NCBI GenBank assembly: GCA_011364965.1
Contig: RDOB01000004.1
Coordinates: forward strand, 398,309 to 422,308
Origin: Candidatus Heimdallarchaeota archaeon
GTDB taxonomy: Archaea; Asgardarchaeota; Heimdallarchaeia; Hodarchaeales; Hodarchaeaceae
Length of the DNA stretch: 24,000 nucleotides
Direction: 5' to 3'
This document shows, piece by piece, positions 1,735 through 20,576 of the stretch. Position numbers and translations under genes: made by a program. The notes under the pieces were generated by a model that saw only the letters and a program-made list of their open reading frames with translations, made no database searches and had not been told where the DNA came from. Positions within the stretch are counted from its first letter, which is position 1; every line of letters begins with the position of its first letter.

Positions 1735-1935
1735 CTACGAGAAAATAGAGGTTAATCGTTGAAGTAACTCATCTGCATTTACTAATAACCAATCAAGAAC
1801 TCCAGTTACAATACTTAGGATCAATAAAAAACCAAATAAACTTAATCCAATTAATATTCCTTCTTCCACGAGTGGAGATCCTCTTCTTTTTTGAAACAAT
1901 AATTTGATAGTTCTCTTAGAAAATGACAAGATCAT
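1735..1935 (-). CDS. Small membrane protein with a class III (type IV pilin / Flp-like) signal-peptide motif
   Basis: The motif 'KRRG|SPLVEEGILIGLSLFGFLLILSIV' has a basic stretch, a Gly at -1 and a Glu at +5, followed by a hydrophobic helix. I prefer the internal Met (MILSFSK..., 1935) because GGTGAGGA lies 3-4 nt upstream on the minus strand. The longer ORF reaches 1962. Confidence 0.4.
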   Translation of the reverse strand: MILSFSKRTIKLLFQKRRGSPLVEEGILIGLSLFGFLLILSIVTGVLDWLLVNADELLQRLTSIFS

Positions 1936-2030
1936 TTTCCTCACCACAATACAAAACTTCAAGTTGTTTATAATGTCCCAAAAATCGCAAAATGTATGTA
2001 AAATTTAGGTAATTATAACTGAGAAAAATT

Positions 2031-2666
2031 ATGGAAGTATCGGTGTGCTTAGTGAAATTTATTCCAACAAAACAGGTTAAGCCATTAAAAATAATTGTTT
2101 TAGGGGAAGGAGGTGTTGGAAAAACAACGATTTCAAAGACTTTCACTAGTAATTCGTGTTTTAAAGACGCTAGACAAACTATTGCAGTAGAATTTCATTC
2201 TATAATTTTTAATCTGGATTCAACCAAATTCAAGCTTCAAATATGGGATTTGGGAGGTCAAGAGCAATTCAAAAACATGGGAGTCTTTGGAGATTTTTGT
2301 AGAGGAGCAGATGCTGCTATCCTATGTTTTGATCTCACTGACTTATCCACTTTATTTTCGATTCCTGATTGGTTAAAGTTCATAGAAAATGACACACCTA
2401 AATTTTTAGTCGGAACAAAGTATGATCTTGCTTCAACTGAAGAAAAAACATTTGATATAACTTCATTCGAAGAAAAGTTTCATTGTGTTGATTCATATAT
2501 TTGTTCCTCTAAAGAAATTAGTTCTGTTATCCAGATCTTTAAGGGCGTTATTGACTTTCTAGAAAACGGGAAAAATAGTCTACAATTGCCTTCCAAGACA
2601 TCTGTTAAGATATCTAAACCTCTAGTATTATCACAAGGTGAGTTATATGCAAAAATTAATAGGTAA
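2031..2666 (+). CDS. Ras-superfamily small GTPase, Rab-like
   Basis: All five G motifs are recognisable: G1 'GEGGVGKT', a switch I 'QTIAVEF' (Rab-like TIGVDF), G3 'WDLGGQEQF', G4 'GTKYDL' (TKxD rather than NKxD) and G5 'CSSK'. The protein has no C-terminal Cys prenylation motif. Confidence 0.9.
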   Translation: MEVSVCLVKFIPTKQVKPLKIIVLGEGGVGKTTISKTFTSNSCFKDARQTIAVEFHSIIFNLDSTKFKLQIWDLGGQEQFKNMGVFGDFCRGADAAILCFDLTDLSTLFSIPDWLKFIENDTPKFLVGTKYDLASTEEKTFDITSFEEKFHCVDSYICSSKEISSVIQIFKGVIDFLENGKNSLQLPSKTSVKISKPLVLSQGELYAKINR

Positions 2667-3390
2667 AATGAATAATAAACATGAAAATAAGAGAATTGTA
2701 AGTGGTGTGCCAGGATTCAATCGTTTAGTTGAAGGTGGTTTTAGGGAAAATTCAGTAAATGTCGTCATTGCTGACCCTGGTTGCGGAAAATCAACTTTTT
2801 GTTGGCAATTCTGTGCTGAAGAGCCAGAAGCCCCTGCATTATATGTCTCCTTAGAACAGAATCTAGATTCAGTGCTAAGAGATTGTCGTGATATTGGCCT
2901 GAATAATTTTGAAGACAAATATAGGAGAGGTCGTTTGCAATTCCAAGTTGCGTTTAGCGAGGATTCTGATATGACCTCTGGAGAAATCGGTTTGAGATTT
3001 TTTATGTCTGAACTCCCTAAATATCTTGAAATAATCAGGGAAACAGCAGAACATTATCATGGAGGAATACGAATAGCAATAGATCCCCTTACTCCATTAT
3101 TATTGGAAATTCCAGATTTGAACCAGCAACGAAATGCCATAAATCGAATATTTACATCTTTAAGAAAGATTGGTACAGCTGTTGTTACAATAGAGAAAGG
3201 ATTTGGGGAATCTTTAGCGAAAGTGCCATTATTTCTTGCAGATTCCATTCTTGAATTAGAACATATTGGTCTTGGTGGTATATACAACCGAACACTCCGT
3301 GTTCGTAAGTTTCGAGGTTCTGCACATGCTGAGACTCCTCAACCGATTCATTTTGAAACTGGAAAGGGGTTATCGGTATATGAAATCTAA
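2647..3390 (+). CDS. Single-domain KaiC-like / RecA-superfamily ATPase
   Basis: The opening 'GVPGFNRLVEGGF' matches the KaiC/RadA-type pattern TGIxGLDxxLxGG. Walker A is 'ADPGCGKST' and the Walker B-like strand is 'IRIAIDPLT'. I chose the ATG at 2647 because AGGTGA lies at 2636-2641. Alternative starts are GTG 2638 and ATG 2668. The 2638 and 2647 starts overlap the GTPase stop at 2664-2666, and 2668 begins 1 nt after it. Confidence 0.8.
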   Translation: MQKLIGKMNNKHENKRIVSGVPGFNRLVEGGFRENSVNVVIADPGCGKSTFCWQFCAEEPEAPALYVSLEQNLDSVLRDCRDIGLNNFEDKYRRGRLQFQVAFSEDSDMTSGEIGLRFFMSELPKYLEIIRETAEHYHGGIRIAIDPLTPLLLEIPDLNQQRNAINRIFTSLRKIGTAVVTIEKGFGESLAKVPLFLADSILELEHIGLGGIYNRTLRVRKFRGSAHAETPQPIHFETGKGLSVYEI

Positions 3391-3811
3391 TATTTTAGAA
3401 TTGAAGCCCTCAATACCCTCTCTTCTTCGAACTATAGATCAGGAATTAGGGCATTTGAACAACTTCATCGATATTCAGGCTGTTTTCCTCTTTAGAATCG
3501 ATGGATATGTTTTGAAGTCCCATTATAGTACAAATCGCTCAAATAATCTCTTGCATGTCATAGGTTGGGTTAAGCAAATTATCTCTAAAACTATGGAGGA
3601 ATTGCAGAGAGGATCCAGATCCGTTAAATATGACAAAGAAATAAACGTAAATGAGTCTATTCCAGTCTATTTCTATCGTGCAGGTCAATCCAGTATTTTA
3701 GTAACCTTTCTTAGGTCAAAAGCAAATACTGGATTAATGGAAATTGAGATGAGTCGAACTGCAAAACGTTTGAGCTATATAATTGATAATTTTGATAGTT
3801 TAGAGGTTTAA
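3380..3811 (+). CDS. Roadblock/LC7 (MglB-like) domain protein
   Basis: The size (143 aa) and sequence pattern fit Roadblock/LC7. 'IDIQAVFLFRIDGYVLKS' matches the V.g.llv..dGl.ia pattern. 'SILVTFLRSKANTGLMEIEMSRTAKRL' matches the L.v.......G......l pattern. I chose the ATG at 3380, which overlaps the KaiC-like stop by 11 nt. The 3266 start would require a 125-nt overlap. Confidence 0.6.
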   Translation: MKSNILELKPSIPSLLRTIDQELGHLNNFIDIQAVFLFRIDGYVLKSHYSTNRSNNLLHVIGWVKQIISKTMEELQRGSRSVKYDKEINVNESIPVYFYRAGQSSILVTFLRSKANTGLMEIEMSRTAKRLSYIIDNFDSLEV

Positions 3812-3813
3812 AA

Positions 3814-5190
3814 ATGATTAATGCCTCGGTTGGTCTATTTATTAATCACGATCTAAATTATGCAACACAAAAAGCCTTAGAACAGGCTGAAGCGAAGTTG
3901 GATGGGGATCCCTCTCTCATTCTATATTTTACCGGGACTCATCTTGGGGGTTCCCAGACATACGATAGAGCATTAAGGATTATCAAGCAGAAATATCCCA
4001 GAATTCCCTTGGCAGGATGTTCAGGAATCGGAATATGTGATAAACATGATTATGGTCTAAAAGGGGCTGGTATTCTCCTAGTAACAGGGATCACCGCTAG
4101 AACTTCACTTATAAAGCGTTTTAGAATTGGTACGAGTCTAAAAGCTCGCAAAATTCGACGGAATTGTAATAAAATAAATCGTATTGAAAAAAAAAGAGGA
4201 TCGAACACAACTTTCCTTTTTTTTCCCCCTGGACTTGGTTTTCCCAAATTCTTAATTAATTTACTAAATCATAAGATTGAAGGCTTTAATCCCTTTTTTC
4301 CTCTGAATAATCGCATTTGGCGATTGTTTCCTTTATTATCGAAACTTTCTGGTAAGTTTGCTGGATTCGCTATGGACATTGCTGGGATTGGAATCTCCTA
4401 CTCGGCGGCTTGGCCTCTGTTTTCACAATTATATGAGGATGGTATTCATTTTACCGGCACATTTGGTACCGATCCTCTTACCATGAATAAATCATATCAA
4501 TTCAGTAATTTTAAAGCATATAAGGACTCTTTAGTTTATGTTTCCATTAGTTCTCCTTTTTTACACTTTACAAGTCAAACTGATAGTGGTGCTCAAATAA
4601 TTCCTCAAAAAACTTTCGATTTGGATAGTTATCTAAATGGGGGTTTTATTCCCAGAATTAGAAAGAAATGGGGAAAACTTGCATTATTAGAGCTTTTTGA
4701 CATGGAAAAAACTCCTGAAATCTTAGAAGAATGTATTCAACGATATTTCTACTATCATCCATTTCGACCATTGTGCGTGATTGATAACTCAAACAATCAA
4801 AATATTTATTGTTTAGCAGTAAATCCAAATCTCAATCACGCGCTGATTACAGCGCCTAACCAAGTTGCTAAGCAATTAATCAAAACATCTAGAAATAGAT
4901 TAAATGCATATATTTGTGATCAGAGTTCTCAAACTATTGAATCCTTACTAAAGGAAACTTTGTCAAAACAGGTTTCAAAAAACACCCTATTCGGTTTATT
5001 TTTCGATTGTGGGAATAGAGCAATGATCATTGGTGATAGATTCGACCAATACTCAAAGGTTTATGCTGATAACTTAAATATTCCTTATTTGGTTGTCATA
5101 TCTGGAGGTGAAATAAATTCGCAGACATTCCCTATTGTTAACATGAGTTTAATCTCCAGTTTGGCACACGGAACCATAAATTCTCCCTAG
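3814..5190 (+). CDS. FIST (FIST_N + FIST_C) sensory-domain protein
   Basis: The N-terminal pattern 'DPSLILYFTG...YDRALRIIKQKYPRIPLAGCSGIGIC' resembles FIST_N. The C-terminal pattern 'LFGLFFDCGNRAMIIGDRFDQYSKVYADNLNIPYLVVISGGEI' resembles FIST_C. The ATG lies 2 nt after the Roadblock stop, with GAGGT at 3804-3808. Confidence 0.6.
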   Translation: MINASVGLFINHDLNYATQKALEQAEAKLDGDPSLILYFTGTHLGGSQTYDRALRIIKQKYPRIPLAGCSGIGICDKHDYGLKGAGILLVTGITARTSLIKRFRIGTSLKARKIRRNCNKINRIEKKRGSNTTFLFFPPGLGFPKFLINLLNHKIEGFNPFFPLNNRIWRLFPLLSKLSGKFAGFAMDIAGIGISYSAAWPLFSQLYEDGIHFTGTFGTDPLTMNKSYQFSNFKAYKDSLVYVSISSPFLHFTSQTDSGAQIIPQKTFDLDSYLNGGFIPRIRKKWGKLALLELFDMEKTPEILEECIQRYFYYHPFRPLCVIDNSNNQNIYCLAVNPNLNHALITAPNQVAKQLIKTSRNRLNAYICDQSSQTIESLLKETLSKQVSKNTLFGLFFDCGNRAMIIGDRFDQYSKVYADNLNIPYLVVISGGEINSQTFPIVNMSLISSLAHGTINSP

Positions 5191-5209
5191 AATGGAGGAT
5201 TAAACCAAA

Positions 5210-6586
5210 TTGGCTGTAATTCATTCTATACTAGGAATTTCAGCAATTCCAAATGAATTTCAAATATTAACAATGAAATATTTTGGATTACAGGTAGTAG
5301 TATCAGGTATCTATCTAAGTTATGCTTGGATTTCTCTTTATTATTTAGTAATATTGAACTCGGTTTCATTGTATAGTTATATTGTTGCAATAGGTATGCT
5401 TTGCGGAGCATTATTAGATTTTCCTTTGGGACTAATAACTGACCGTTTTGGCCAGAAGAAAGCTTATTGTGGGGCTTTATCATGTCTTTTAATTTATTAT
5501 TTAGGGTTAATATTTGCTAAAAGTGCATTTGACCTTCTAGTATTGGAAATTATTGTAGGAGTTTATTCAGCTTTAATTTCTGGATCCTTCATTACTTGGT
5601 TTATGAATTCTTGGGAACTAATCTCTATGAATATAGGAAAAGAGTCAAAAATCCAATTTAATGCAATTATGAGTAATATTAATTCTATTAAAACAGTCCT
5701 AGTAGCTACAATGACTATCTTTGGAGGTTTTTTATTAAATAAATTAGCTATTCCTCCTCAAGGCATTTTTCTCTTACAATCTGCAATAGCAGGCTTTGGA
5801 ATTCTATTAGGAATTCGATTTTTGAACACCCCAATCACAGAAAGCAGAATGGAATCTGAAGTTCCAAGATCTGATAGGACTAATGGTTTTCATACATTAG
5901 CTAAAATTAGAGAACTGATATTACTTCTTCAATCACGATATGCCAAGGTAACAATCTTCTTTCTCAGCTTATCCCTTTTGGGTTTTACATCAATGGCATT
6001 TCAGACACTGCTTTTCACGCCATTATTATACGAATTAACCACTCACTCCCCTATTTTTAAATCCACTGAGAAAATTTTGATAACATATACTACATTATCA
6101 ATATTTCTAATTTCCTTTATACAAGCTGGTTCCGATTTTATCCACGCGATTGCATGTAGGCTGTCTGGACGAATATTCAACAATGTTATTTCCCCTTATC
6201 GAATTTTAATTGTCATTTATTCATTGATTTATCCAGTTGTGTGGTTATTTCTCGTATTTCTCCTCTCATCTAGTGTTCCAAAGTATTTCAAACTTATTGG
6301 CGTAATAAGTATTTACTTAATACGATTAATTATAGTTGGTCTAATTTCAAGTTTGTATTGGCAATTTTATATGAAAATTACTATAGTTAAAATTCGAAGT
6401 TCTCAAGAATCGTTATTTAATACTATTTACCTAGTAGTTTCAGTTTTGGGATTTGCTCTAATTGGTATTATCATAGAAAGATTCAGTTTGGAATCTAGTC
6501 TTCTTAGTCTTTTTATAATTAGTACCCTTGGCATTTTCCTTTTAATTATTGGGGATTATGCTGAAATTTCTATTAAAAATAATTGA
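5210..6586 (+). CDS. MFS-type membrane transporter
   Basis: The protein is polytopic and hydrophobic (about 12 helices by eye). It carries an MFS motif-A-like loop 'GLITDRFGQKKAY'. The start is TTG, 10 nt after GGAGGA (5194-5199) and 19 nt after the FIST stop. An alternative ATG lies at 5273. Confidence 0.7.
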   Translation: MAVIHSILGISAIPNEFQILTMKYFGLQVVVSGIYLSYAWISLYYLVILNSVSLYSYIVAIGMLCGALLDFPLGLITDRFGQKKAYCGALSCLLIYYLGLIFAKSAFDLLVLEIIVGVYSALISGSFITWFMNSWELISMNIGKESKIQFNAIMSNINSIKTVLVATMTIFGGFLLNKLAIPPQGIFLLQSAIAGFGILLGIRFLNTPITESRMESEVPRSDRTNGFHTLAKIRELILLLQSRYAKVTIFFLSLSLLGFTSMAFQTLLFTPLLYELTTHSPIFKSTEKILITYTTLSIFLISFIQAGSDFIHAIACRLSGRIFNNVISPYRILIVIYSLIYPVVWLFLVFLLSSSVPKYFKLIGVISIYLIRLIIVGLISSLYWQFYMKITIVKIRSSQESLFNTIYLVVSVLGFALIGIIIERFSLESSLLSLFIISTLGIFLLIIGDYAEISIKNN

Positions 6587-6601
6587 TTTGCCAGTTATAT
6601 T

Positions 6602-7798
6602 TTATAGATATTCACTAGGAGTACTTGGGGGTCTACTACCAGATAGAACTTTTTTAATAGCCTTCTTGAAATCATTAAAAGTAACACGTGTTCGTTTTTC
6701 TCTAATCGCAAACATCCCTGATTCCTGTGTGATCGCTCGTATATCTGCACCAGAAGCGTTGGCTGTTTCACTTGCTAAATATGAATAATCAACTTTTGAA
6801 TCCACATTCATCGTACGTGTGTGAATTTTGAATATTTCTTGTCTCTCCTCATGTGTAGGTAAGAGAAACTCAATATGTCTATCAAATCGACCTGGTCGTA
6901 ATAGCGCTGGATCTAAAATATCAACTCGGTTTGTTGCTCCGATAATTTTCACATCCCCTCTTGGAGAGAAACCATCCAATTCACTTAGAAGCTGCATTAA
7001 GGTTCGTTGTACTTCTCGGTCTCCGCTTGTAGCAATATCAAGACGTTTACTTCCAATTGCATCTAATTCGTCAATAAACAAAATACTCGGGGAATTGTCC
7101 CGTGCGAAAGCAAATACCTCTCTAACCAGTCTTGCTCCTTCTCCAATATACTTTTGAACCAATTCGGATCCGATGACTCGAATAAAGGTAGCTTTGGTTT
7201 CATGAGCCACTGCTTTGACCATTAATGTCTTACCTGAACCAGGAGGTCCATGTAATAGTACTCCTTTTGGTGGTTCAATTCCAACTTTCACAAACAATTC
7301 TGGTTGTAATAGCGGTAGTTCAACAGTTTCTTTAAGCTCTTGTAGTTGTAATTTAAGGCCGCCGATATCCGTATAGGTCTCTGTTGGCTTTGAATCAACC
7401 TCCATGGAGCGTACTAGCGGGTCTCGTGATTGAGGTAGTACTTCAAGAATTGCAAAATTTCTTTGATGAAGTGCTACTCTTGCACCTGCTATTAGTTCCT
7501 CTCTGGATATTGAAGAATCAATTACAACAACAAAAGATGGACCTGTAGAGCTTTTTACAATAGCTTTCCCATTTTCCAGTATTTCTTGAATAGTCCCTGT
7601 AAACAATGGAGGTTGACGGAGTTTTTGCAATTCTAGCTTAAGATTATCTCTCTCCTCTTCTAATTTGTTACGCTGTACCTCAAGGAGCTGTCTTTCAGTT
7701 TCTAAGGCACGAATTCGTCTTTCCATGGTACGCGTATAGCTATCAGTGAAATCATCATATGATTCTTTATTATCCACACTCTCAGGCATCAGTTCCAC
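6602..7798 (-). CDS. pan: Proteasome-activating nucleotidase (AAA+ ATPase, Rpt/PAN family)
   Basis: An N-terminal coiled coil (RIRALETERQLLEVQRNKLEEERDNLKLELQKL) is followed by an OB region. Walker A is 'GPPGSGKT', Walker B is 'ILFIDELDA' and the arginine-finger region is 'RPGRFDR'. The C-terminus '...SEYL' keeps the penultimate Tyr. Confidence 0.95.
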   Translation of the reverse strand: MELMPESVDNKESYDDFTDSYTRTMERRIRALETERQLLEVQRNKLEEERDNLKLELQKLRQPPLFTGTIQEILENGKAIVKSSTGPSFVVVIDSSISREELIAGARVALHQRNFAILEVLPQSRDPLVRSMEVDSKPTETYTDIGGLKLQLQELKETVELPLLQPELFVKVGIEPPKGVLLHGPPGSGKTLMVKAVAHETKATFIRVIGSELVQKYIGEGARLVREVFAFARDNSPSILFIDELDAIGSKRLDIATSGDREVQRTLMQLLSELDGFSPRGDVKIIGATNRVDILDPALLRPGRFDRHIEFLLPTHEERQEIFKIHTRTMNVDSKVDYSYLASETANASGADIRAITQESGMFAIREKRTRVTFNDFKKAIKKVLSGSRPPSTPSEYL

Positions 7799-8219: not shown

Positions 8220-8732
8220 TTGAACCGTATACAAACTTGCGAGATGTGTGGAATAGAAGCTCCAGTAACCCTTGTTGAAATTGATCATGTTGAGTTATAT
8301 GCATGTCCAAAATGTGCAAAGTTTGGTAAACCCATCATTAGTTATCCACCAAAGAAATCATCTACCCCTACAAAGAAACCAGTAGGAATGAAAAAATCTG
8401 AACCTCGTACGCTTAAACCTCCACGAAAAGATTTTCTTCACGATAAGATTTTAATTGATGGTTATGGAACCTTAATCCAAGAATCTAGAAAAGCTAAAGG
8501 TTTAGGCCGAGCAGAATTTGCAAAAATTATCAAAGAGAAGGAAACCCTTCTCGCTAGAATAGAAACTGAAAAAGTATTACCAACTGATCGCATTGTGGCA
8601 AAAATCGAGCGCGAGCTAAATATTGAACTTAAAACTGAAGTTAGTGACGAAACTTCTACAACTGACAGTTTTATTTCTAAATCAACCACATTAGGCTCGA
8701 TCGCGAAGATAAAACGGAAAAAAGGTAAATAA
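8220..8732 (+). CDS. mbf1: Archaeal multiprotein bridging factor 1 (Zn-ribbon + Xre-type HTH)
   Basis: The N-terminal C4 zinc ribbon is 'CEMCG...CPKCAKFG'. The C-terminal cro/C1-type HTH is 'LIQESRKAKGLGRAEFAKIIKEKETLLARIETEK'. A TTG start is required to include the first Cys pair. GAGG lies at 8205-8208. Confidence 0.85.
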   Translation: MNRIQTCEMCGIEAPVTLVEIDHVELYACPKCAKFGKPIISYPPKKSSTPTKKPVGMKKSEPRTLKPPRKDFLHDKILIDGYGTLIQESRKAKGLGRAEFAKIIKEKETLLARIETEKVLPTDRIVAKIERELNIELKTEVSDETSTTDSFISKSTTLGSIAKIKRKKGK

Positions 8733-9334: not shown

Positions 9335-9886
9335 TTGACACATTATACAATTGAAAGAATCATCGAGGTTCCTGAAAATATTACTGCTACGTTGACTGAT
9401 GTACGTGGCGGCAAAAAAGTCTCCATAAAAGGAGATAAAGGCGAGTTAGAAAGAACATTTGTTAGGCTAACCGTTCAAATTACATATGAAGACAATAAAT
9501 TCATCATTCAGAGTCATTTTGGCAAAAAAACAGAAGCTTCGATGGTTGGTACGATCACTGGTCATATAAAAAATATGATCAAAGGAGTTACAGATGGATT
9601 TACCTATAAAGTTCGAATAATAACCTCTCACTTTCCTGCGACCGTAGAAGTTCAAAAAGATGTAATTCTAGTGAAGAATCTTTACGGAAGACGAGATCCA
9701 ATCCGTGTCCCATACAATCAATCATTGAAAGTCAAAGTAGAAGGAGATCTCGTAGTTATAAGCGGAATAGACATCGAAATAGTTTCTCAGACTGCTGCTC
9801 GATTAGCAGAAGCTACTCGTCTCCGTGGTAAACGTAGTAAAGACCCAACTGTATTCCAAGATGGGCTTTACGTGGTATATCCTTAA
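9335..9886 (+). CDS. rpl6: 50S ribosomal protein uL6
   Basis: 'IEVPENITATL...VSIKGDKGELERTF' followed by a second beta-rich repeat is the typical archaeal uL6 pattern. I chose the TTG at 9335, with AAGGT at 9323-9327. The ORF-track start at 9278 would overlap rps8 and add non-conserved residues. Confidence 0.9.
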   Translation: MTHYTIERIIEVPENITATLTDVRGGKKVSIKGDKGELERTFVRLTVQITYEDNKFIIQSHFGKKTEASMVGTITGHIKNMIKGVTDGFTYKVRIITSHFPATVEVQKDVILVKNLYGRRDPIRVPYNQSLKVKVEGDLVVISGIDIEIVSQTAARLAEATRLRGKRSKDPTVFQDGLYVVYP

Positions 9887-9987
9887 GTATGAACATAAAT
9901 ATCAAACCACCTTAGGCTCATTTCAAACAAAAAGTTCAAGAAATCTTGATCACCCTTTCATATACCAAGATCATTAAGGAGCTTTAA

Positions 9988-10062
9988 GGGCCTGTAGCTT
10001 AGCCCGGTTAAAGCGTCCGGCTCATAACCGGATGAACGTGGGTTCAAATCCCCCCAGGCCCA
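9988..10062 (+). tRNA. tRNA-Met(CAU): tRNA with CAU anticodon (elongator Met, or Ile2 if C34 is modified)
   Basis: The acceptor is GGGCCTG/CAGGCCC and the D stem GCTT/AAGC. The anticodon stem is TCCGG/CCGGA with loop CT-CAT-AA. The T arm is GTGGG-TTCAAAT-CCCCC with one U:C mismatch, and the discriminator is A. G1:C72 and the lack of a GGG/CCC anticodon stem argue against an initiator tRNA. Confidence 0.85.
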
Positions 10063-10077
10063 TCATTTGCAACAAAA

Positions 10078-10183
10078 GGCATCATAGCTCAGTTAGGTAG
10101 AGCGTCCGGCTGTTACATTCTCTCTTGATTGGGGAGATACTACAGACACCGGGTGGTCGCAGGTTCAAATCCTGCTGGTGCCG
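10078..10183 (+). tRNA. tRNA-Asn(GUU): tRNA-Asn (GUU) with a 32-nt intron at the canonical 37/38 position
   Basis: The exons fold into a 74-nt cloverleaf. The acceptor is GGCATCA/TGGTGCC and the D stem GCTC/GAGC. The anticodon stem is TCCGG/CCGGG, and the T arm is GCAGG-TTCAAAT-CCTGC. The intron spans 10116-10147. A central 4-bp helix, CTGT (10110-10113) with ACAG (10142-10145), is flanked by 3-nt bulges (TAC 10114-10116 and ACA 10146-10148). These bulges carry the two splice sites. An intron hairpin forms between TCTCTC and GGGAGA. Confidence 0.9.
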
Positions 10184-10197
10184 TTTTTATTCTTTTT
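10184..10197 (+). terminator. Two T5 tracts directly after tRNA-Asn
   Basis: The sequence is tttttattcttttt. The first tract overlaps the stop codon of the convergent minus-strand gene that ends at 10187. Confidence 0.4.
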
Positions 10198-12040
10198 CTT
10201 CATTATCTGAAGGTAAAAAGTTACTCATGACCCTTTGGATTTTCGAAAAAGGAACACCCTTTGTAGCCACTAAACTACTGACCAAAATCATATTAATCTG
10301 TTCTTCTTCTTCCTCATTTATTTTTGCATCAGCTAATTGAATATTTGCAAATTGAGCAGCTAAAATTGGAAATTCTGGATTTGTATGGGGTACTTTTGTC
10401 AGTACAATTTTAATTCCTCTTATAAATTCAATTCCTAACTCAATTGTGTTATTTGATAAAGGAACTTCAAAGAAATCAAGGTTAAATGACATTTCCTCAA
10501 CTTCAGCAACCGTTGGTTCTGTCTCGGAAGAGTAGATTGCAGTTTTCCCCAAAATTTCTAACTTTATAGCCAATTGCTTTTGTTTAAAATCACTTTCACT
10601 TCTTAGGAGTTGTTTTAAAGTCAATCGTATAGAATGGTAGTATTTAGCATCACATTCATCCCCTAAATAATTGATCGCTTGAAGAAGTGCAAGTATTGCA
10701 CGTGCAATGTCTTTTTCTGTCTCCTGATTGGAAAAAACTACCTCTCTTAAGTCCTGGGTTAGAATCATAATACTAACTTTCAGCAAATTTTCAAAAAATT
10801 GAGCATGAGTTAAATCCTCTGATTCCATAATAGATTCGTCTAATTCTGCAATTTCCTCCTCATCTATATGATAACTCTTCATCATTGCGGCTAATGCATC
10901 AAAATTATGTTTTTGTATTCCTGAAGGATATTGTTTACCATGGAGATATGCTGCCTTTAAAATAGGTGCAATTGCTGCGTTTAAACGATCCTTTGCCTCT
11001 TCTCCCTCTTTTTCTTCAAATACTGTCTCAATGAGTTCCGTGGCCTTGGACAGATGATAGAAAACAAAATCCTCTCCAAGAATATATTCTAGAGCCAAAT
11101 TAAATATCGCGCCGAACCATTTTAAATGAAATCCTCTAGAAAATGAGAAACTGGTTAGGAAAATGTTTTCTAGATGCCACATTTCCCGGGTAATTAACGA
11201 GGGATTTACATAATATCTATCAAAAACGTAATGTTTTAATTCTCTCGAAGGAGAGTAATTTCGTGAATCTACTTCTAATACCATTGAAGGAAGCCAAATC
11301 GGAATTAAAGATACAGTATAGTTAAAAGCTCGAGCAAATTCCTCTAAATCGTCAGTTCTAATCTTACCTTTAATAAAAGGATCACCAAAACTTGGAGGAG
11401 ATATAATTGCATTATTATCTCCATAACCTAATTCAATCTTATAATATTCAAGTAAGGAATCACTTAACCCTCTTTTCATCATTTCTACGTTTACGTAAAT
11501 ATCTTTTAAACAATATAAAGCCATTTGGGATATATCTGTCAAGAATTTGTAGACAATTTCCTTAGAAAAGTTCTCTGAAGGAATTAAATCAGCTAAATCT
11601 TTGAAAAAAGTTAGAGTTCTAGCTAATGAAGCTTTTAGTCGTACTTCTATCCCTCGTTGTCTTTGAACGGAATGTAAAAGTTCATGGGTTAATAAACCAA
11701 GAAATCCGTTATTATTTTCTGGATTCAATAGAGGTGTGTCAGCTTCCAGCTGAATGAAAACAAATTCTTTCTCTTCATAACCATAGGAAAATGAAGTTTG
11801 AAATGGATCTAGAAAAAAAGACCTTAAAGTTTTCATTTGGGCTTCAGGTAAATCTAATGAATTTAAAAAATTCTTTACTTCTTTAGAATCATTAATATCT
11901 GAAAAAACTATCGTCAAATTCTCAATATGTTGACAGAAAGATTCAATAATTGGATTTGATAACTTAACTAGAATTTCTGATTCAGATGGCCTTAGAAAGT
12001 CAAGAAAGATTATCTTTGGTTGTTTTACTAATTCTTCCAA
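10187..12040 (-). CDS. Uncharacterised 617-aa protein with an HExxH motif (possible zincin-like metallopeptidase)
   Basis: This is a long ORF with a TTG start. 'GFLGLLTHELLHSVQRQRG' places HExxH in the hydrophobic context typical of zincins. I recognised no other domain. The C-terminal half looks largely helical with acidic patches (EEEIAELDESIMESED, NEEEEEQ). I saw no signal peptide or transmembrane segment. Confidence 0.55.
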   Translation of the reverse strand: MEELVKQPKIIFLDFLRPSESEILVKLSNPIIESFCQHIENLTIVFSDINDSKEVKNFLNSLDLPEAQMKTLRSFFLDPFQTSFSYGYEEKEFVFIQLEADTPLLNPENNNGFLGLLTHELLHSVQRQRGIEVRLKASLARTLTFFKDLADLIPSENFSKEIVYKFLTDISQMALYCLKDIYVNVEMMKRGLSDSLLEYYKIELGYGDNNAIISPPSFGDPFIKGKIRTDDLEEFARAFNYTVSLIPIWLPSMVLEVDSRNYSPSRELKHYVFDRYYVNPSLITREMWHLENIFLTSFSFSRGFHLKWFGAIFNLALEYILGEDFVFYHLSKATELIETVFEEKEGEEAKDRLNAAIAPILKAAYLHGKQYPSGIQKHNFDALAAMMKSYHIDEEEIAELDESIMESEDLTHAQFFENLLKVSIMILTQDLREVVFSNQETEKDIARAILALLQAINYLGDECDAKYYHSIRLTLKQLLRSESDFKQKQLAIKLEILGKTAIYSSETEPTVAEVEEMSFNLDFFEVPLSNNTIELGIEFIRGIKIVLTKVPHTNPEFPILAAQFANIQLADAKINEEEEEQINMILVSSLVATKGVPFSKIQRVMSNFLPSDNEEKE

Positions 12041-12165
12041 GATTCACTCATCCTAAGAAGTAAAGCTCGAGTTTAGTAGCACTACTCCTTTATGTTAAAT
12101 AATTTAGCTTGCTCTACAAAACAGACCGAAAGAGAGAAGTTGAAACCTCAATTTGTTATTTTAAG

Positions 12166-12185
12166 TAACCAAAAATAACCAAAAA
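12166..12185 (-). repeat. Tandem 10-nt repeat giving two T5 tracts on the minus strand, just after the ATPase stop
   Basis: The plus strand reads TAACCAAAAA twice (12166-12175 and 12176-12185). The minus strand reads TTTTTGGTTA twice. The repeat begins 38 nt downstream of the stop at 12223. Confidence 0.35.
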
Positions 12186-12222
12186 CAATAGTTCCAGCTT
12201 CTTTATGAATTTAAAACCATAT

Positions 12223-14394
12223 TTACGGATTTTTATACCTATCTAGAGATAAAGGATCTATATGAGCAAGGTTATATTGCTCTTGGAGAGCTTTTACAGC
12301 GGGTTGTTTTTGAATCAGCTTGATGTCTGAAACTAATTCAGGTTTTAGATGAAATTCATTTGATTTCATAAGTGTGACTTCTCCATTTACAGAAATAATA
12401 AATCTTCTTTCATCAGGTTTTATTTTCAAAAGACTCTTTAAATGTTCATAATTCTCAAGGGATATACCTAATAGGGTTGACACTGCTCTTGGATCATGTT
12501 TAGTATAAAAAAATACCATTACACCAGCATTAGAAAGCATCGATTGATCTACCACTGGATCTGTCCCAATAAAAATCATTGAAACATCGTATGCTCTTAA
12601 TGTCCAAGGTCCACGGGCTATCATGGATCCTGATGATTTTGTATATGAATGAGGAGCTGGTATAAGTTTTTGTATCTCATCTAAAATAAAAATATTCTTT
12701 GGAAGCCCTTCTTCTTTGAATGATAATCGAGAAATGCGTAAAAAATAATATAAATATTGAAAAACTATATCTAAAAAAATTTGTCGTCCTTTTTGATCTT
12801 CCATGGCTTCAAAAGCTGATAAATCAATGATTACATTTTCCTCAATTAATTTAGTAATCGCAAAAGTTGTTTCTTTGACGCATAGACATCTCCCAATGTT
12901 TCCAAACATAAGTTTTTCTACTCGGTTTAGTACACTAGCAGAGGTACTCTCAATATAGGCGCCTCTCATATTAACCTTTTCGGGATACTCAATAAAGTGT
13001 GTAAAATCCTTAAAATTTCCCTCTTGGTTGATTGTTCTAATTATCGCTAAACGCAATAACTGTCTCATTTGAGGTGAAACTTTATCTTGATTATCATCAA
13101 AAATTTGTTCAAAAACAGAGATAACAAAGTGAATGTGATCTTCTTTGTCAATAATGTACTCACCTTGATCATTTTTGGGGATTTGGAAAACATTAATACC
13201 CCATGGAAATGAAGTCGATCCTGGTTTTAAAAAAGAAAAATCTTTGCAGAATGTGGAAATCGGGAATAGATATTCTCCTTTTGGATCGAAAATTAAGAAT
13301 TTTGAGCTTTGGGTATAAAATTCTCGAATTAAACCGAAAATAAATCTACTTTTCCCCTCTCCAGTCATCCCAAAAACTGCGATGTGTCTACATAGATCCT
13401 TTCCATTTATTGTTAATTGCTCATCTGATGTTTTGCCACTAAAAATGGGGATGCCGATATTAATTGACTGTCTCATGTTCTGTGAAAAAACCCGAGTTGA
13501 AAGTTGATATCGTGATTTGTGGGGAATAAGTGAATAACCATTCTTGGTAAATTGCCTTTGCGGAGGACTGATATACGACATTAAAGAAAAACCATCAACA
13601 ACAATGGGTAACACTAATTTTCTTTTCCGACAAATGTTCATGAAAGAAGAAATTCGATTCCAAAATGATGGATAAACTTTACTGGACAGACCATACGATG
13701 AGAAAATAACTGTAATCCTTTCTATTTTCGATCTTAAAATTTCTGAATCAGTTTCCACTAAAATGATACGGGGAGAAAACTCAAAACAACCTAATTCATT
13801 CATTATATCTTCTATTGTCGTATTATAATGCCTATCTATCCTTCCTTCTTGGATATTGAACTTAATCTGAGTTATCCTTGGCTCTTCAGGTAAAAATTCC
13901 TTCGGAATTTTCTTTTTTGATCTGAAAATAAATTGGATGAAAGCAAAATGGGGGGAATCAGTGAGAATTTCTAATAAAGCTTCCGAAAAATTGATTGTTG
14001 TACTCAATGGCAATTTAATATCATATGAACGTCCTATTAGTCCCCCAGTAAAGAATTGTTCCCTTTCTGGATCCAAAGCAAACTTATTTTGTAAGATATT
14101 CAGAACAATAGAAATTGGGTAGTTTCCCAAGCTTTGAAAGTCTGGATGTAACCCTAAATCAGTAAGAAATTGCTTTATGCTAGCAAAACCATGAGTATCT
14201 CTATTTTTTTTCAGGATTCCTTTTGTATTACAGGTTATAGTCACATATATCGCGTCTGGAGAGAATATGGAATATTCAAGACTAAAGGTGGAATGAGATG
14301 CTTTCAATGCTTGAATTGCGTTGATTTTGGCGTTTTCTGGAATGTAATCGAGGAAAACTGCTTCAGCACTATAATCCATAAAACCATCACACAT
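12223..14394 (-). CDS. HerA/FtsK-superfamily (DUF87-like) P-loop ATPase with an unassigned N-terminal region of about 330 aa
   Basis: Walker A is 'HIAVFGMTGEGKS', followed by 'FLIFDPKGEY' (the HerA/DUF87 hallmark iiDp.GEY). Walker B is 'NIFILDEIQKL'. A sensor-like segment is 'RAYDVSMIFIGTDP'. Residues 1 to about 330 matched no family I could recognise. Confidence 0.8.
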   Translation of the reverse strand: MCDGFMDYSAEAVFLDYIPENAKINAIQALKASHSTFSLEYSIFSPDAIYVTITCNTKGILKKNRDTHGFASIKQFLTDLGLHPDFQSLGNYPISIVLNILQNKFALDPEREQFFTGGLIGRSYDIKLPLSTTINFSEALLEILTDSPHFAFIQFIFRSKKKIPKEFLPEEPRITQIKFNIQEGRIDRHYNTTIEDIMNELGCFEFSPRIILVETDSEILRSKIERITVIFSSYGLSSKVYPSFWNRISSFMNICRKRKLVLPIVVDGFSLMSYISPPQRQFTKNGYSLIPHKSRYQLSTRVFSQNMRQSINIGIPIFSGKTSDEQLTINGKDLCRHIAVFGMTGEGKSRFIFGLIREFYTQSSKFLIFDPKGEYLFPISTFCKDFSFLKPGSTSFPWGINVFQIPKNDQGEYIIDKEDHIHFVISVFEQIFDDNQDKVSPQMRQLLRLAIIRTINQEGNFKDFTHFIEYPEKVNMRGAYIESTSASVLNRVEKLMFGNIGRCLCVKETTFAITKLIEENVIIDLSAFEAMEDQKGRQIFLDIVFQYLYYFLRISRLSFKEEGLPKNIFILDEIQKLIPAPHSYTKSSGSMIARGPWTLRAYDVSMIFIGTDPVVDQSMLSNAGVMVFFYTKHDPRAVSTLLGISLENYEHLKSLLKIKPDERRFIISVNGEVTLMKSNEFHLKPELVSDIKLIQKQPAVKALQEQYNLAHIDPLSLDRYKNP

Positions 14395-14720: not shown

Positions 14721-15107
14721 CTAACACTTTTTGACAACAATCTTGAAGTCTGTAGCGTCAGGACAACAAGATTCAATAAAACCGAGAACTCGACTCATTC
14801 GGGAAGTTATCTTTAAAACCATGCTTGAACCTTTGGAAGTTAATTTGTATGTCTTGATCCTCTGATCCTTAATACCATCCTTTGTGGTTCGAATATTTGG
14901 ATCATCTTCTGTTTTCTCTTCGATTAAACCTTTCTCAACTAAGGATTGAATGATTTTGTACGTTGCACCTGTGGAAGGAGACCAATCTTCCCCTAGGCTC
15001 TCCTGAAGCCGATTAACGATTTCATAACCAGCTAGAGATTCAGAATTATGAAGCACTAGAAGGAATAAAGCTTCTGTGGGAGTAATGTCCAAATTTTTCC
15101 CAAGCAA
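14721..15107 (-). CDS. PadR-family winged-helix transcriptional regulator with a C-terminal cysteine cluster
   Basis: 'LAGYEIVNRLQESLGEDWSPSTGATYKIIQSLVEKGLIEE' matches the PadR signature (GYEI...W.PS.GT.Y..L..LE..GLI). The C-terminus is 'ESCCPDATDFKIVVKKC'. The start is TTG and the exact start position is uncertain. Confidence 0.8.
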   Translation of the reverse strand: MLGKNLDITPTEALFLLVLHNSESLAGYEIVNRLQESLGEDWSPSTGATYKIIQSLVEKGLIEEKTEDDPNIRTTKDGIKDQRIKTYKLTSKGSSMVLKITSRMSRVLGFIESCCPDATDFKIVVKKC

Positions 15108-19112: not shown

Positions 19113-20576
19113 CTATTTGCTGATTTTCTCTTTTTCAATACGTTTTATTTGCTGGTAATTCTTAAGAATACTTGAAGAGATATTTGTCATCTGTTTAAAA
19201 CCTATTGAGATAGGTAAAACTCTAAAAAATTTCTTCATTTCTATAAAAACCTCTTGAATGACAATTTTTTCGTCTACTTCTCCAACTTCTTGAATATTAG
19301 TTAGGAAAAATAAGGTAGTAGATCCTAGGAGCGCAGCTAGCAAAAATAATATATCAAAACTATTGAATATCCAGAATGAAAACTTTAGAGTTGTCAACCC
19401 CTCATCTATTATTCCAGCTAATAAGGGTGCTATACCCGAAGCAAATGCAATAACAATATTTCGAACAGCCAAATAGGAAGTTGCATTTCCCCTAGGTGCA
19501 AGTTTTAGTCCAATATTTGCTGTTGCTAGATTTATTCCTGCAATAGAAATACCGATAAAAAGATAAATAAGAATTAATAGCGCTATAAGAACCAATCTAA
19601 CCTTTATTAAGGGAGTAAAAATCCATAAGAAAATACTGAATAATAATAACGGACACGAGATAAGTAGGACTGATTTATTACTGAATTTGTCAATAATATT
19701 TCCCCAAATCCTAAAGAAGAATACATTTACTAATTGGGACATCATTTGAAAGATAATAATCAGACTTAGATCCAATTTCAGGATGTTTATTAAATAAACT
19801 GTAAAGAAAGGAGTGGCTAAATTAATGAAAAAGTTCCAAGTGAAAAGAAATAGAATCAAGTGCTTGAAATTGATGTCTCCAAAAGGAGTGAGAAAAATCC
19901 GTGTGTAATTATTACGAGAAATTATAGGTTTGATTTTCATCTGAGGCTCGAATATTAAGGAAACGATGCCCACTCCGATCATGCCTACAATAAATCCCCC
20001 TAGAAAAAGAATAGAATAAGCATATAATAAAGTTGAAGGAGATGTTGCACGCCAGTAGTCAAGGAAAAGTCCAGCGATAAGCGCAACCACGATACCAAAA
20101 CCCATGGCCCAAGTCATTCTTCGGGAAAAAAAATGTCCCATCACTTCTTCAGGAATTAAATCTCTCATCCAGGAATCCCAACTGCAATTACCTATGGCTC
20201 CAATTGAATAGTGCAGAGCAATTAGAACAAGTAATGTTGGAATTGCTAATTCTATTGAATATAAAACAGGCACAAATATCATAGGAAGAAGAAAAAATCG
20301 AGAAAGTGAGGTGGCAATAATATTGATTCTTCTTCTAACTTGATATTTTTCAATTAAATAAATAGCTGGAATTTGAATAAGTTGGGCTAAAAAGGGAATA
20401 GCAATGATAAAACCAATAATTATACTGTTGGCACCTAAATCAAGAGCAAAAGAAATTAAAAATACTCCACTAGTTAAAGTAAGCATGATTTGGGTAGTGA
20501 TCCCATCTCTAAGAACTCGGATTAAGCTCTGTCGGGTCTCCTCTTCTGATAATGACTCCTTAGTTCGAGATTTCAT
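19113..20576 (-). CDS. MFS-type membrane transporter
   Basis: The 487-aa protein is polytopic and hydrophobic. The loop 'SWDSWMRDLIPEEVMGHFFSRR' resembles one found in some MFS subfamilies. The substrate is unknown. Confidence 0.65.
   Translation of the reverse strand: MKSRTKESLSEEETRQSLIRVLRDGITTQIMLTLTSGVFLISFALDLGANSIIIGFIIAIPFLAQLIQIPAIYLIEKYQVRRRINIIATSLSRFFLLPMIFVPVLYSIELAIPTLLVLIALHYSIGAIGNCSWDSWMRDLIPEEVMGHFFSRRMTWAMGFGIVVALIAGLFLDYWRATSPSTLLYAYSILFLGGFIVGMIGVGIVSLIFEPQMKIKPIISRNNYTRIFLTPFGDINFKHLILFLFTWNFFINLATPFFTVYLINILKLDLSLIIIFQMMSQLVNVFFFRIWGNIIDKFSNKSVLLISCPLLLFSIFLWIFTPLIKVRLVLIALLILIYLFIGISIAGINLATANIGLKLAPRGNATSYLAVRNIVIAFASGIAPLLAGIIDEGLTTLKFSFWIFNSFDILFLLAALLGSTTLFFLTNIQEVGEVDEKIVIQEVFIEMKKFFRVLPISIGFKQMTNISSSILKNYQQIKRIEKEKISK

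Follow-up and report, generated by a model that had tools for sequence, protein, structure and literature searches.

What could a small GTPase, a KaiC-like ATPase, a Roadblock/LC7-fold protein, a FIST protein and a membrane permease have to do with each other when their genes are packed so tightly that some of them overlap? This question is raised by a locus of Candidatus Heimdallarchaeota archaeon (assembly GCA_011364965.1, contig RDOB01000004.1, positions 398,309 to 422,308), analysed here as a window of 24,000 nucleotides (nt) whose first letter is position 1. Between positions 2031 and 6586, five open reading frames (ORFs) on the + strand follow each other in one direction with near-zero spacing, and gene callers placed the same boundaries on the source contig. 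The cluster looks like an undescribed signalling module of Hodarchaeales-type Asgard archaea, apparently built around the KaiC-like ATPase and the Roadblock protein. A first-pass annotation, made from the sequence alone, had already noted that the five-gene combination is not known as a described system. No description of the cluster, of KaiC with a GTPase in Asgard archaea or of an Asgard FIST domain was found in the literature searched, which did not cover the KaiC-hub paper of Makarova et al. 2017.

Five genes in one putative operon

The first gene (2031-2666, + strand) encodes a Rab-like small GTPase of 211 amino acids (aa), and its start at 2031 is backed by the alignment of orthologs. 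The gene for the KaiC-like ATPase (2647-3390, +; 247 aa) begins with an ATG located 20 nt inside the GTPase ORF, the stop codon of which (TAA) is at 2664-2666. A GTG at 2638 is also possible as start codon, and a second in-frame ATG is present at 2668. The gene for the Roadblock/LC7-fold protein (3380-3811, +; 143 aa) starts with an ATG in an 11-nt overlap with the end of the KaiC-like gene (stop codon at 3388-3390). Its TAA (3809-3811) is separated by 2 nt from the ATG of the gene for a stand-alone FIST protein (3814-5190, +; 458 aa). The TAG of the latter (5188-5190) is followed after 19 nt by the TTG start codon of the gene for a membrane protein of the major facilitator superfamily (MFS) type (5210-6586, +; 458 aa). 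Motifs similar to Shine-Dalgarno (SD) sequences precede the four internal starts: AGGTGA (2636-2641), AGGGG (3365-3369), GAGGT (3803-3807) and GGAGGA (5194-5199). This means that four successive junctions consist of overlaps or gaps of at most 19 nt with an SD-like motif at each of them. The overlaps, spacings, SD-like motifs and the additional ATG at 2668 listed in the first-pass annotation are exact, and the operon-like packing that it described is real.

The only sizeable non-coding gap of the cluster is found upstream of the GTPase gene at 1963-2030 (+ strand). This A+T-rich stretch of 68 nt is presumed to be the operon promoter region, which would be shared divergently with a small reverse ORF at 1735-1962 (- strand) whose position is conserved. 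Together with the gene for tRNA-Ala(TGC) at 1584-1657, which lies between the KH gene and the operon, the small ORF parts the operon from the RIO-kinase/KH genes upstream. The downstream boundary is formed by the convergent gene for the proteasome-activating ATPase PAN (6602-7798, - strand), whose end is located 15 nt past the MFS stop codon. From this layout, the five genes are predicted to constitute one operon. A scan with PADLOC yielded no match and, therefore, a defence system is unlikely.

Conservation of the gene order

A genome scan with a profile of the Roadblock protein yielded 20 loci, all from metagenome-assembled genomes (MAGs) of Asgard archaea, and their layout was read by tblastn with the window proteins. 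Most of these loci are labelled Hodarchaeota, Heimdallarchaeota or Promethearchaeota, and one each bears the label Hermod- or Thorarchaeota. A metagenome scan added 10 further loci, whose layout was read as far as each contig reaches; some of the short contigs hold two to four genes. The conserved loci belong to one order-level group of Asgard MAGs. The possibility that the host is an Asgard archaeon, raised in the first-pass annotation, is borne out by the labels of the orthologs, which read Hodarchaeota, Hodarchaeales, Heimdallarchaeota or Promethearchaeota.

In nearly all 20 genome loci, the genes are arranged in the order RIO–KH–GTPase–KaiC–Roadblock–FIST–MFS. The same order with tight or overlapping junctions recurs in 19 of the 20 genome loci and in the 10 metagenome loci, and for this reason the arrangement is judged to be more than chance. 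The overlap at the GTPase–KaiC junction is kept in about 20 loci. According to tblastn, the KaiC-like ATPase is the most conserved protein of the cluster, with orthologs 74-84% identical to the window protein compared to 55-60% for the flanking RIO kinase. The corresponding values are 54-69% for the Roadblock protein (73% over a partial match in locus L026), 56-67% for the FIST protein, 50-62% for the GTPase, 40-50% for the MFS protein and 58-66% for the flanking KH protein. Rearrangement breakpoints were found directly after the MFS gene (window, L015, L023, L036) and upstream of a methyltransferase gene (L022/L023), and none inside the five-gene block in the loci compared. L026 appeared to be truncated upstream. 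This was considered as a variant architecture and rejected, since a run of N at about 9880-10100 (a scaffold gap or masking) covers the 5' part of its Roadblock gene: The missing KaiC-like and GTPase genes are an artefact of an assembly gap.

The KaiC-like/Roadblock pair as invariant core

In loci L009, L015, L024 and L039/L040, the GTPase gene is cleanly missing and the KaiC-like/Roadblock pair is retained. Here, the divergent small ORF is the immediate upstream neighbour of the KaiC-like gene. Neighbour-joining trees place L009 and L015 as sisters and L024 apart from them, so that the absence of the GTPase gene reflects at least two independent events. On the divergent contig L030 (KaiC-like protein 65%, FIST protein 38% identical), the genes are arranged as GTPase–KaiC–Roadblock–FIST; those that come next are unrelated, and there is no MFS gene. 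A second tier of KaiC-like proteins, which are 50-57% identical, is encoded in MAGs labelled Odinarchaeota and Hodarchaeales. On these contigs (L027/L028 from Odinarchaeota, L029, L031/L032 from soil and L033/L034), the KaiC-like gene is always followed by a PF27410 gene 17-26 nt later, and no GTPase, FIST or MFS gene adjoins the pair. The second-tier partners are clear homologues of the window Roadblock protein (hidden Markov model (HMM) E values of 1e-26 to 1e-33). Everywhere, the KaiC-like stop codon and the Roadblock start codon overlap or are at most 26 nt apart.

Because the pair recurs in at least four other Asgard contexts and survives the absence of the GTPase, the KaiC-like and Roadblock genes are taken, on the evidence of gene content, to be the invariant core of the cluster. 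The first-pass annotation had viewed the Roadblock protein as the dedicated regulator of the GTPase. The Roadblock fold has held up; the GTPase as its primary partner has not, as the pair persists without it. Judged by its neighbours, the Roadblock protein is the constant partner of the KaiC-like ATPase and not primarily a GTPase regulator. The comparison of loci fits best with a history in which an Asgard KaiC-like/Roadblock pair would have entered an early, loose association with the FIST subfamily of the cluster and then become a Hodarchaeales-type operon with a Rab-like GTPase and an MFS protein.

Further genes were observed around the second-tier pairs. In L029 (5429-7809), a gene for a protein with a Zn ribbon and a winged helix-turn-helix domain lies upstream and a canonical Robl_LC7 gene downstream of the pair. 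In L027 from Odinarchaeota (3916-6588), a weakly longin/Roadblock-like protein of 188 aa (upstream) and a 177-aa protein without family assignment are encoded near the pair, and in L033, a 176-aa protein, likewise without assignment, is encoded upstream of it. The proteins of about 176 aa upstream of the paralogous pairs were examined as candidate GTPases and are not GTPases.

The KaiC-like protein matches the Pfam family KaiC (PF06745) with 2.4e-27 over model positions 3-228 of 231; the earlier assignment is thus confirmed by a profile search. It contains a Walker A motif (ADPGCGKST), the catalytic SLE, a Walker B motif (IAIDP) and RKFRGS. Residues K48, E70, D146, R215, K221 and R223 are invariant across the orthologs and the 50%-identity tier. 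The best match in the PDB is the N-terminal half (residues 14-243 of 518) of an entry named KaiC (8zn5, 1.4e-29), and single-domain homologues from Pyrococcus and Sulfolobus are also among the PDB matches. The protein is classified by these criteria as a single-domain KaiC-like ATPase of the RecA superfamily with intact catalytic residues, and it is probably active. Circadian KaiC has duplicated CI and CII domains (about 500 aa), Ser/Thr phosphosites in CII and the partners kaiB and kaiA. A circadian clock KaiC was ruled out by the single 247-aa domain, by the NCBIfam scores and by the lack of a KaiB-like gene among the window ORFs scanned. None of the NCBIfam KaiC subfamily cut-offs was reached (KaiC equivalogs: 80 and 36 bits vs. 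cut-offs of 408 and 546).

Autophosphorylation is typical of KaiC-family ATPases, and the second component that they bind depending on their state relays the signal (PMC4858521). As of 2016, most archaeal KaiC-like proteins had no identified second component (PMC4858521), which makes the Roadblock partner an obvious candidate for this role.

In the Pfam scan, the window Roadblock protein had no match, Robl_LC7 (PF03259) included. The Pfam copy scanned did not include PF27410 ('AF0774'), to which precomputed annotation reports a weak match. With a profile of 37 orthologs, the Thorarchaeota Roadblock protein 7f8m was found in the PDB over its full length (E=0.0033) and MglB was found weakly. The AlphaFold2 (AF2) model (pLDDT 86.3, pTM 0.81) has the topology α-β-β-α-β-β-β plus a C-terminal helix. 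Its best Foldseek matches, all with a probability of 1.00, are the Asgard (MK-D1) Roadblock3 (9jue), MglB (3t1s), 7f8m, MglC and LAMTOR. Among the matches are also a Roadblock/LC7-domain structure from Streptomyces avermitilis (3kye) and, at lower ranks (23, 29, 39 and 48), LAMTOR subunits and the C-terminal domains of Gtr/Rag. The homologue from L031 is found by the operon-family HMM (1.6e-33) and exceeds the Robl_LC7 gathering score (25.2 > 23). In addition, the JGI names for the orthologs are of the Roadblock/LC7/MglB family. The assignment of the 143-aa protein to the Roadblock/LC7 fold is, therefore, supported by the predicted fold and by sequence transitivity, and the first-pass annotation was right in substance, the PF03259 profile itself giving no match to the window protein. 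The protein is presumably dimeric. Its family is small: An HMMER profile scan of 1.84 billion representatives yielded 30 clusters, the named ones being from Hodarchaeales, Heimdallarchaeaceae or Thor-labelled MAGs, and the homologue search brought up nothing beyond orthologs with 50% identity or more.

The GTPase, the FIST protein and the permease

The GTPase matches the Pfam family Ras over its full length (1.5e-26, 93 bits), Roc with 4.4e-21 and Gtr1_RagA with 23 bits over residues 20-82 only. The best PDB matches are Rab33B, Rab12 and Rab43 (about 1e-19 to 3e-20), and the top 60 are all Rab (including Rab1, Rab11 and Rab7), Ypt or Ran. The window protein contains the motifs GEGGVGKTT (G1), QTIAVEF (G2), WDLGGQ (G3), GTKYD (G4) and CSSK (G5). 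These are invariant in 18 orthologs as GEGGVGKTT, QTIAxEF, WDxGGQ, GTKxD and CSxK, the G3 Asp included. The Ras-type assignment proposed at the outset thus agrees with both profile and motifs, and the operon GTPase is classified as a Rab-like member of the Ras superfamily. It is termed 'Rab-like' and not a bona fide Rab because its C-terminus has no Cys prenylation motif (...GELYAKINR in the window, ...LLIS in orthologs).

Two other identities were considered. A Rag/Gtr GTPase was ruled out by the length of 211 aa, the lack of a C-terminal roadblock domain and the far higher score for Ras than for Gtr1_RagA; a second GTPase gene for a Rag-type heterodimer is not present among the five genes of the cluster. 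MglA proteins are defined by a G3 motif without the conserved Asp and by coupling of their gene to mglB (PMC4316618). The invariant Asp in WDLGGQ excludes an MglA. In L017 (18004-18534, -) and L026 (16225-16749, -), the gene for a second small GTPase of the same BLAST cluster was noticed about 3-5 kb further downstream, on the opposite strand; the tblastn identity of the one in L026 is about 30%.

The FIST protein matches FIST_N above the gathering cut-off (GA) of Pfam (6.4e-9, 36.4 bits > GA 23.2) and FIST_C below it (1.7e-5, 25.4 bits < GA 28.5). PF10442 (FIST_C) is a precomputed match of about 24 of the 57 orthologs listed. Among PDB folds, the FIST protein FBXO22 (8ua3_C, 3.3e-6) ranks first as a match of the AF2 model (pLDDT 77, pTM 0.81), and weaker matches are enzymes, namely a cyclic amide hydrolase (5hy2) and chorismatase. 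A FIST profile searched against PDB sequences gave no meaningful match. The motifs FFPPGxxFP, CxNR and GGE are invariant, and invariant Cys and His residues are present in the orthologs. Among 5.8 billion proteins, the homologue search returned only orthologs of at least 56% identity. The protein is, as first proposed, assigned to the FIST proteins. It is a stand-alone FIST_N plus FIST_C protein of a divergent, lineage-specific subfamily. An identical FIST protein is encoded on contig JAEOUP010000014.1 of GCA_016839295.1 and on several Logan contigs. That FIST would sense amino acids, as the first-pass annotation suggested, is an old prediction which is not upheld: The stand-alone FIST proteins that have been studied, NosP, bind haem, sense NO and control a partner kinase (PMC12570481).

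A distant, full-length FIST homologue of 487 aa was observed in L031/L032 (9346-10809, +). It has no precomputed Pfam match, is recognized by tblastn with an E value of 2e-29 (22% identity; 24% in the alignment) and keeps the FFPPGxxFP, CxNR and GE motifs. Its gene is located 2.2 kb from the KaiC-like/Roadblock pair, with TruA and NOG1 genes on the other strand between them.

MFS_1 is the sole family match of the permease. The window protein scores just below the GA (1.8e-7, 30.9 bits vs. 33.4), and all 16 of the 16 MFS orthologs match MFS_1, the best with 2.4e-14. Hydropathy indicates about 12 transmembrane (TM) segments arranged as 6+6 around a central loop (205-246), and the MFS motif A (consensus G-x-x-x-D-[RK]-x-G-[RK]-[RK], here GLITDRFGQK) is found at residue 74 between TM2 and TM3. 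A profile of the protein searched against PDB sequences yielded no meaningful match. Based on the family match, TM number and motif, the permease is assigned to the MFS superfamily, as had been stated before. The same features rule out an SLC38/APC-type identity.

Two observations concern MFS genes and their surroundings. At 19113-20576 (-), 13 kb away from the operon, lies the gene for another MFS_1 transporter, which reaches a higher score (64 bits). Furthermore, in 10 of the loci L007-L026, a gene for a protein of about 259 aa follows the MFS gene on the same strand at a distance of 45-540 nt, before the convergent SecY gene. Judged by eye, it resembles a DUF62-like S-adenosylmethionine (SAM) hydroxide adenosyltransferase, with an MTDFG motif at the N-terminus. 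The window does not contain this gene, and PAN follows MFS there.

A proposed signalling module and its alternatives

The preferred reading is that of one operon encoding a cytoplasmic, membrane-associated signalling module with a KaiC-like/Roadblock core to which the FIST protein, the MFS protein and the Rab-like GTPase have been added. We consider it about evenly balanced whether this is correct. The physical interactions, the ligand and the direction of signalling are those that we infer as follows. The core would consist of a KaiC-like ATPase, presumably a hexamer, and a dedicated Roadblock-fold protein, presumably a dimer, acting as the 'second component' of the ATPase. In the Hodarchaeales-type lineage, the FIST gene would have been gained directly downstream, the MFS gene after FIST and the translationally coupled gene for the Rab-like GTPase upstream. 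The MFS protein might import or report a small solute at the membrane. The FIST protein would bind this solute or another small ligand and shift the ATPase or autophosphorylation state of the KaiC-like ring. This step is modelled on the control of partner kinases by NosP-type FIST proteins: NosP is a stand-alone FIST protein that binds a cofactor or ligand and controls autophosphorylation of an adjacent kinase without a sensor domain of its own (PMC12570481). The state of KaiC would be read by the Roadblock dimer. Where a GTPase is present, the dimer could relay this state to it as GTPase-activating protein, guanine nucleotide exchange factor (GEF) or platform, and the nucleotide state of the GTPase would be the output to effectors. 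Roadblock/MglB proteins are known to regulate small GTPases, and in actinobacterial conservons, sensor kinase, Roadblock protein, GEF and GTPase are encoded together in one operon (PMC4316618, PMC13343842, PMC13621833).

Several points weigh against this reading. The GTPase, missing from four to five loci, appears to be dispensable or encoded elsewhere, which weakens its role as output. In a survey of prokaryotic genomes that predates the availability of Asgard genomes, none of 121 Ras-like (Rup) GTPases was coupled to MglB, compared to 404 of 488 MglA proteins (PMC4316618). A Roadblock–Rab-like pairing would therefore be without precedent in that survey, and the ATPase may be the only target of the Roadblock protein. 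The MFS protein could be an ordinary transporter without a signalling role. Moreover, clustering of all ORFs of the loci revealed that the flanks are syntenic in the same genomes: RNA polymerase A'/A'', L30e, NusA, S12, a methyltransferase, Csl4-like, RIO and KH genes are conserved upstream and SecY downstream. The conserved order must, therefore, partly be due to relatedness and is, by itself, weak evidence for selected linkage. The co-conservation in related genomes that the first-pass annotation had made a test of its proposal was found in the neighbourhood survey, yet it is weakened by these flanks.

How far can the evidence be read in other ways? The dispensable GTPase leads to the view that the Roadblock protein regulates the KaiC-like ATPase only and that GTPase, FIST and MFS are later passengers or fulfil independent functions on a common transcript. 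That the KaiC-like/Roadblock pair stands alone in several Asgard contexts, that its junction is always an overlap or at most 26 nt and that not only the GTPase but also, in L030, the MFS protein can be dispensed with is in agreement with it, as is the uncoupling of Rup-type GTPases from MglB in other prokaryotes (PMC4316618). However, the FIST subfamily is found only in or near the cluster, the GTPase–KaiC overlap has been maintained in the loci mentioned above, and GTPase, KaiC, Roadblock and FIST occur together in L030 in a different context. On balance, this view is unlikely, if far from negligible. Synteny of both flanks across the same loci, which come from one order-level Asgard group, could even indicate that there is no functional unit at all and that the five genes are neighbours through regional synteny among close genomes. 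In this case, it would be difficult to explain why start/stop overlaps and SD motifs are kept at protein identities down to 40-60%, why breakpoints flank the block and never split it, and why L030 again has four of the five genes together, although the downstream context is another one, and the KaiC-like/Roadblock pair reappears in unrelated contexts. We can hardly give credence to this explanation. A transport or metabolic operon, in which the MFS protein takes up a substrate for binding or conversion by the FIST protein and ATPase, Roadblock protein and GTPase merely regulate or assemble the transporter, seems distinctly improbable. The canonical motif A and the 12 TM segments fit an active transporter, the weaker fold matches of FIST to the cyclic amide hydrolase and chorismatase would allow a conversion, and the same-strand gene after MFS in 10 loci resembles, by eye only, a SAM hydroxide adenosyltransferase. 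But none of the five proteins matched an enzyme family in Pfam or NCBIfam, L030 keeps four genes without MFS, and it is the ATPase that is most conserved, whereas the transporter orthologs are 40-50% identical.

The boldest form of the preferred module would be an Asgard-specific hybrid switch, in which a KaiC-like hexamer sets the state of the Rab-like GTPase via the Roadblock dimer, depending on a solute sensed by FIST at an MFS 'transceptor'. We regard this as rather improbable. A further idea is that the operon corresponds to, or preceded, the eukaryotic nutrient sensing by Rag GTPase–Ragulator–SLC38A9, in which a transporter and a sensor gate a GTPase via a Roadblock regulator. This resemblance had been pointed out in the first-pass annotation. 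In its favour, the host is a Hodarchaeales/Heimdall-type Asgard archaeon, the cluster combines genes for a transporter, a sensor fold for small ligands, a Roadblock protein and a GTPase, and LAMTOR as well as the Gtr/Rag C-terminal domains, which have the same fold, are among the lower-rank matches of the Roadblock model. The likeness is confined to the abstract logic of transporter, Roadblock-fold scaffold and small GTPase. In contrast to the Rag proteins, the GTPase is Rab-like (93 bits for Ras vs. 23 for Gtr1_RagA; Rab/Ypt/Ran among the top 60 PDB matches), has 211 aa without a C-terminal roadblock domain, lacks a second GTPase as partner and has been lost in several lineages. The transporter belongs to the MFS and not to SLC38/APC, and in place of a multi-subunit scaffold only one Roadblock gene is present, which is constantly paired with that of the KaiC-like ATPase. 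Vice versa, the eukaryotic system comprises no ATPase or FIST component. Furthermore, the Rag-like GTPases of the Asgard archaeon MK-D1 are built differently, with the GTPase fused to a Roadblock domain (PMC10933270). The comparison fails, thus, on the type of GTPase, the roadblock domain, the transporter superfamily and the number of Roadblock subunits, and a Rag-type system is very unlikely. We found no evidence that the operon is a relative of Rag/Ragulator by descent; by analogy, the two may share a logic.

Comparison with known systems

As far as analogy allows, the closest operonic counterpart of the proposed module would be the actinobacterial conservon (CvnA–D; mfp operon), with only the Roadblock fold and the general logic in common. 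Both unite in one operon an ATP-using sensor component, a Roadblock/MglB-fold protein and a Ras-superfamily GTPase. Conservons are thought to be membrane-associated switches (PMC4316618, PMC13343842, PMC13621833). In contrast to them, the Asgard operon encodes no histidine kinase and has a KaiC-like RecA-type ATPase in this position. It has no match to the CvnC/DUF742 GEF, and its GTPase is Rab/Ras-like with a G3 Asp and not of the MglA type like CvnD. Whereas the membrane kinase is the sensor of the conservon, separate FIST and MFS proteins would sense here, and the host is an Asgard archaeon instead of an actinobacterium. In the MglA–MglB polarity switch of Myxococcus and Thermus, as in the cluster, a small GTPase shares its operon with a Roadblock-fold protein that has an additional helix at the C-terminus, and MglB structures are among the best fold matches. 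However, the Asgard GTPase is not MglA-type, and the Roadblock gene of the cluster adjoins and always pairs with the gene for the KaiC-like ATPase.

The idea that archaeal KaiC-like ATPases are signalling hubs reportedly goes back to a proposal by Makarova et al. in 2017. With these proteins (ArlH, CirA–D, GvpD), the window ATPase shares a single KaiC-like domain, intact Walker A and B motifs and the catalytic Glu. The general idea of signalling through a partner as 'second component' is also common to them (PMC4858521). The partners named for them are KaiB-like thioredoxin-fold or DEATH-like proteins (PMC4858521), whereas the partner described here has a Roadblock fold and was found only in Asgard-labelled sequences. 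In addition, no NCBIfam KaiC subfamily cut-off was reached and an archaellum or gas-vesicle context is lacking. NosP–NosK/NahK systems resemble the operon in that a stand-alone FIST_N plus FIST_C protein is encoded beside an ATP-dependent signalling enzyme without its own sensor domain (PMC12570481). They differ in that the partner here is a KaiC-like ATPase and not a histidine kinase. Furthermore, the operon FIST subfamily is very divergent, with no PDB sequence match and only orthologs found.

Neighbouring genes

The small reverse ORF upstream of the operon encodes about 67-75 aa, and counterparts are present in L009 (8865-9071), L015 (8812-9015) and L024 (8425-8640). It had no Pfam match. 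The motif RRGSPLVEEGILIGLSLFGFLLIL in its product is similar to signal peptides of class III (type IV pilin/Flp-like) and has a TM helix behind it. In archaea, KaiC-like ATPases and, separately, Roadblock proteins have been described in the vicinity of type IV pilus loci (PMC4858521).

Downstream of the operon, a 170-aa protein with N-terminal CxxC pairs and an HTH_3 domain is encoded between PAN and ribosomal protein genes (8220-8732, +); we presume that it is MBF1-like. A tRNA-Met(CAT) gene (9988-10062) is located after the genes for the ribosomal proteins S8 and L6. At 10187-14394 (-), a gene for a 617-aa protein without Pfam match lies beside one for a 723-aa DUF87 protein. This gene pair could be an uncharacterised two-gene ATPase system. 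A gene for a PadR-type regulator is present at 14721-15107.

Implications

Eukaryote-like small GTPases are numerous in Asgard archaea, and so are Roadblock or longin proteins. In the cultured strain MK-D1, GTPase genes are generally not located in operons with Roadblock, longin or TRAPPC3 genes, and it is hard to match GTPases with their regulators (PMC10933270). The operon described here is a counter-example to this pattern in a lineage that is closer to eukaryotes, and as a conserved operon it provides a defined set of five proteins for direct expression and testing. If the genes were merely co-transcribed neighbours, the finding would shrink to a lineage-specific operon of unknown function. 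The Roadblock-fold family is a candidate for the second component of an archaeal KaiC-like ATPase, a gap that was stated in 2016 (PMC4858521). A functional link between the GTPase and the Roadblock protein would, if true, break the rule of 0/121 couplings between Rup GTPases and MglB (PMC4316618) in the lineage closest to eukaryotes. Should the hybrid switch exist, it would be the first case in which a prokaryotic operon connects a GTPase of the Ras/Rab type, as opposed to the MglA type, with a Roadblock regulator. It would also provide, for the archaeal lineage closest to eukaryotes, a concrete pair of GTPase and regulator that can be tested.

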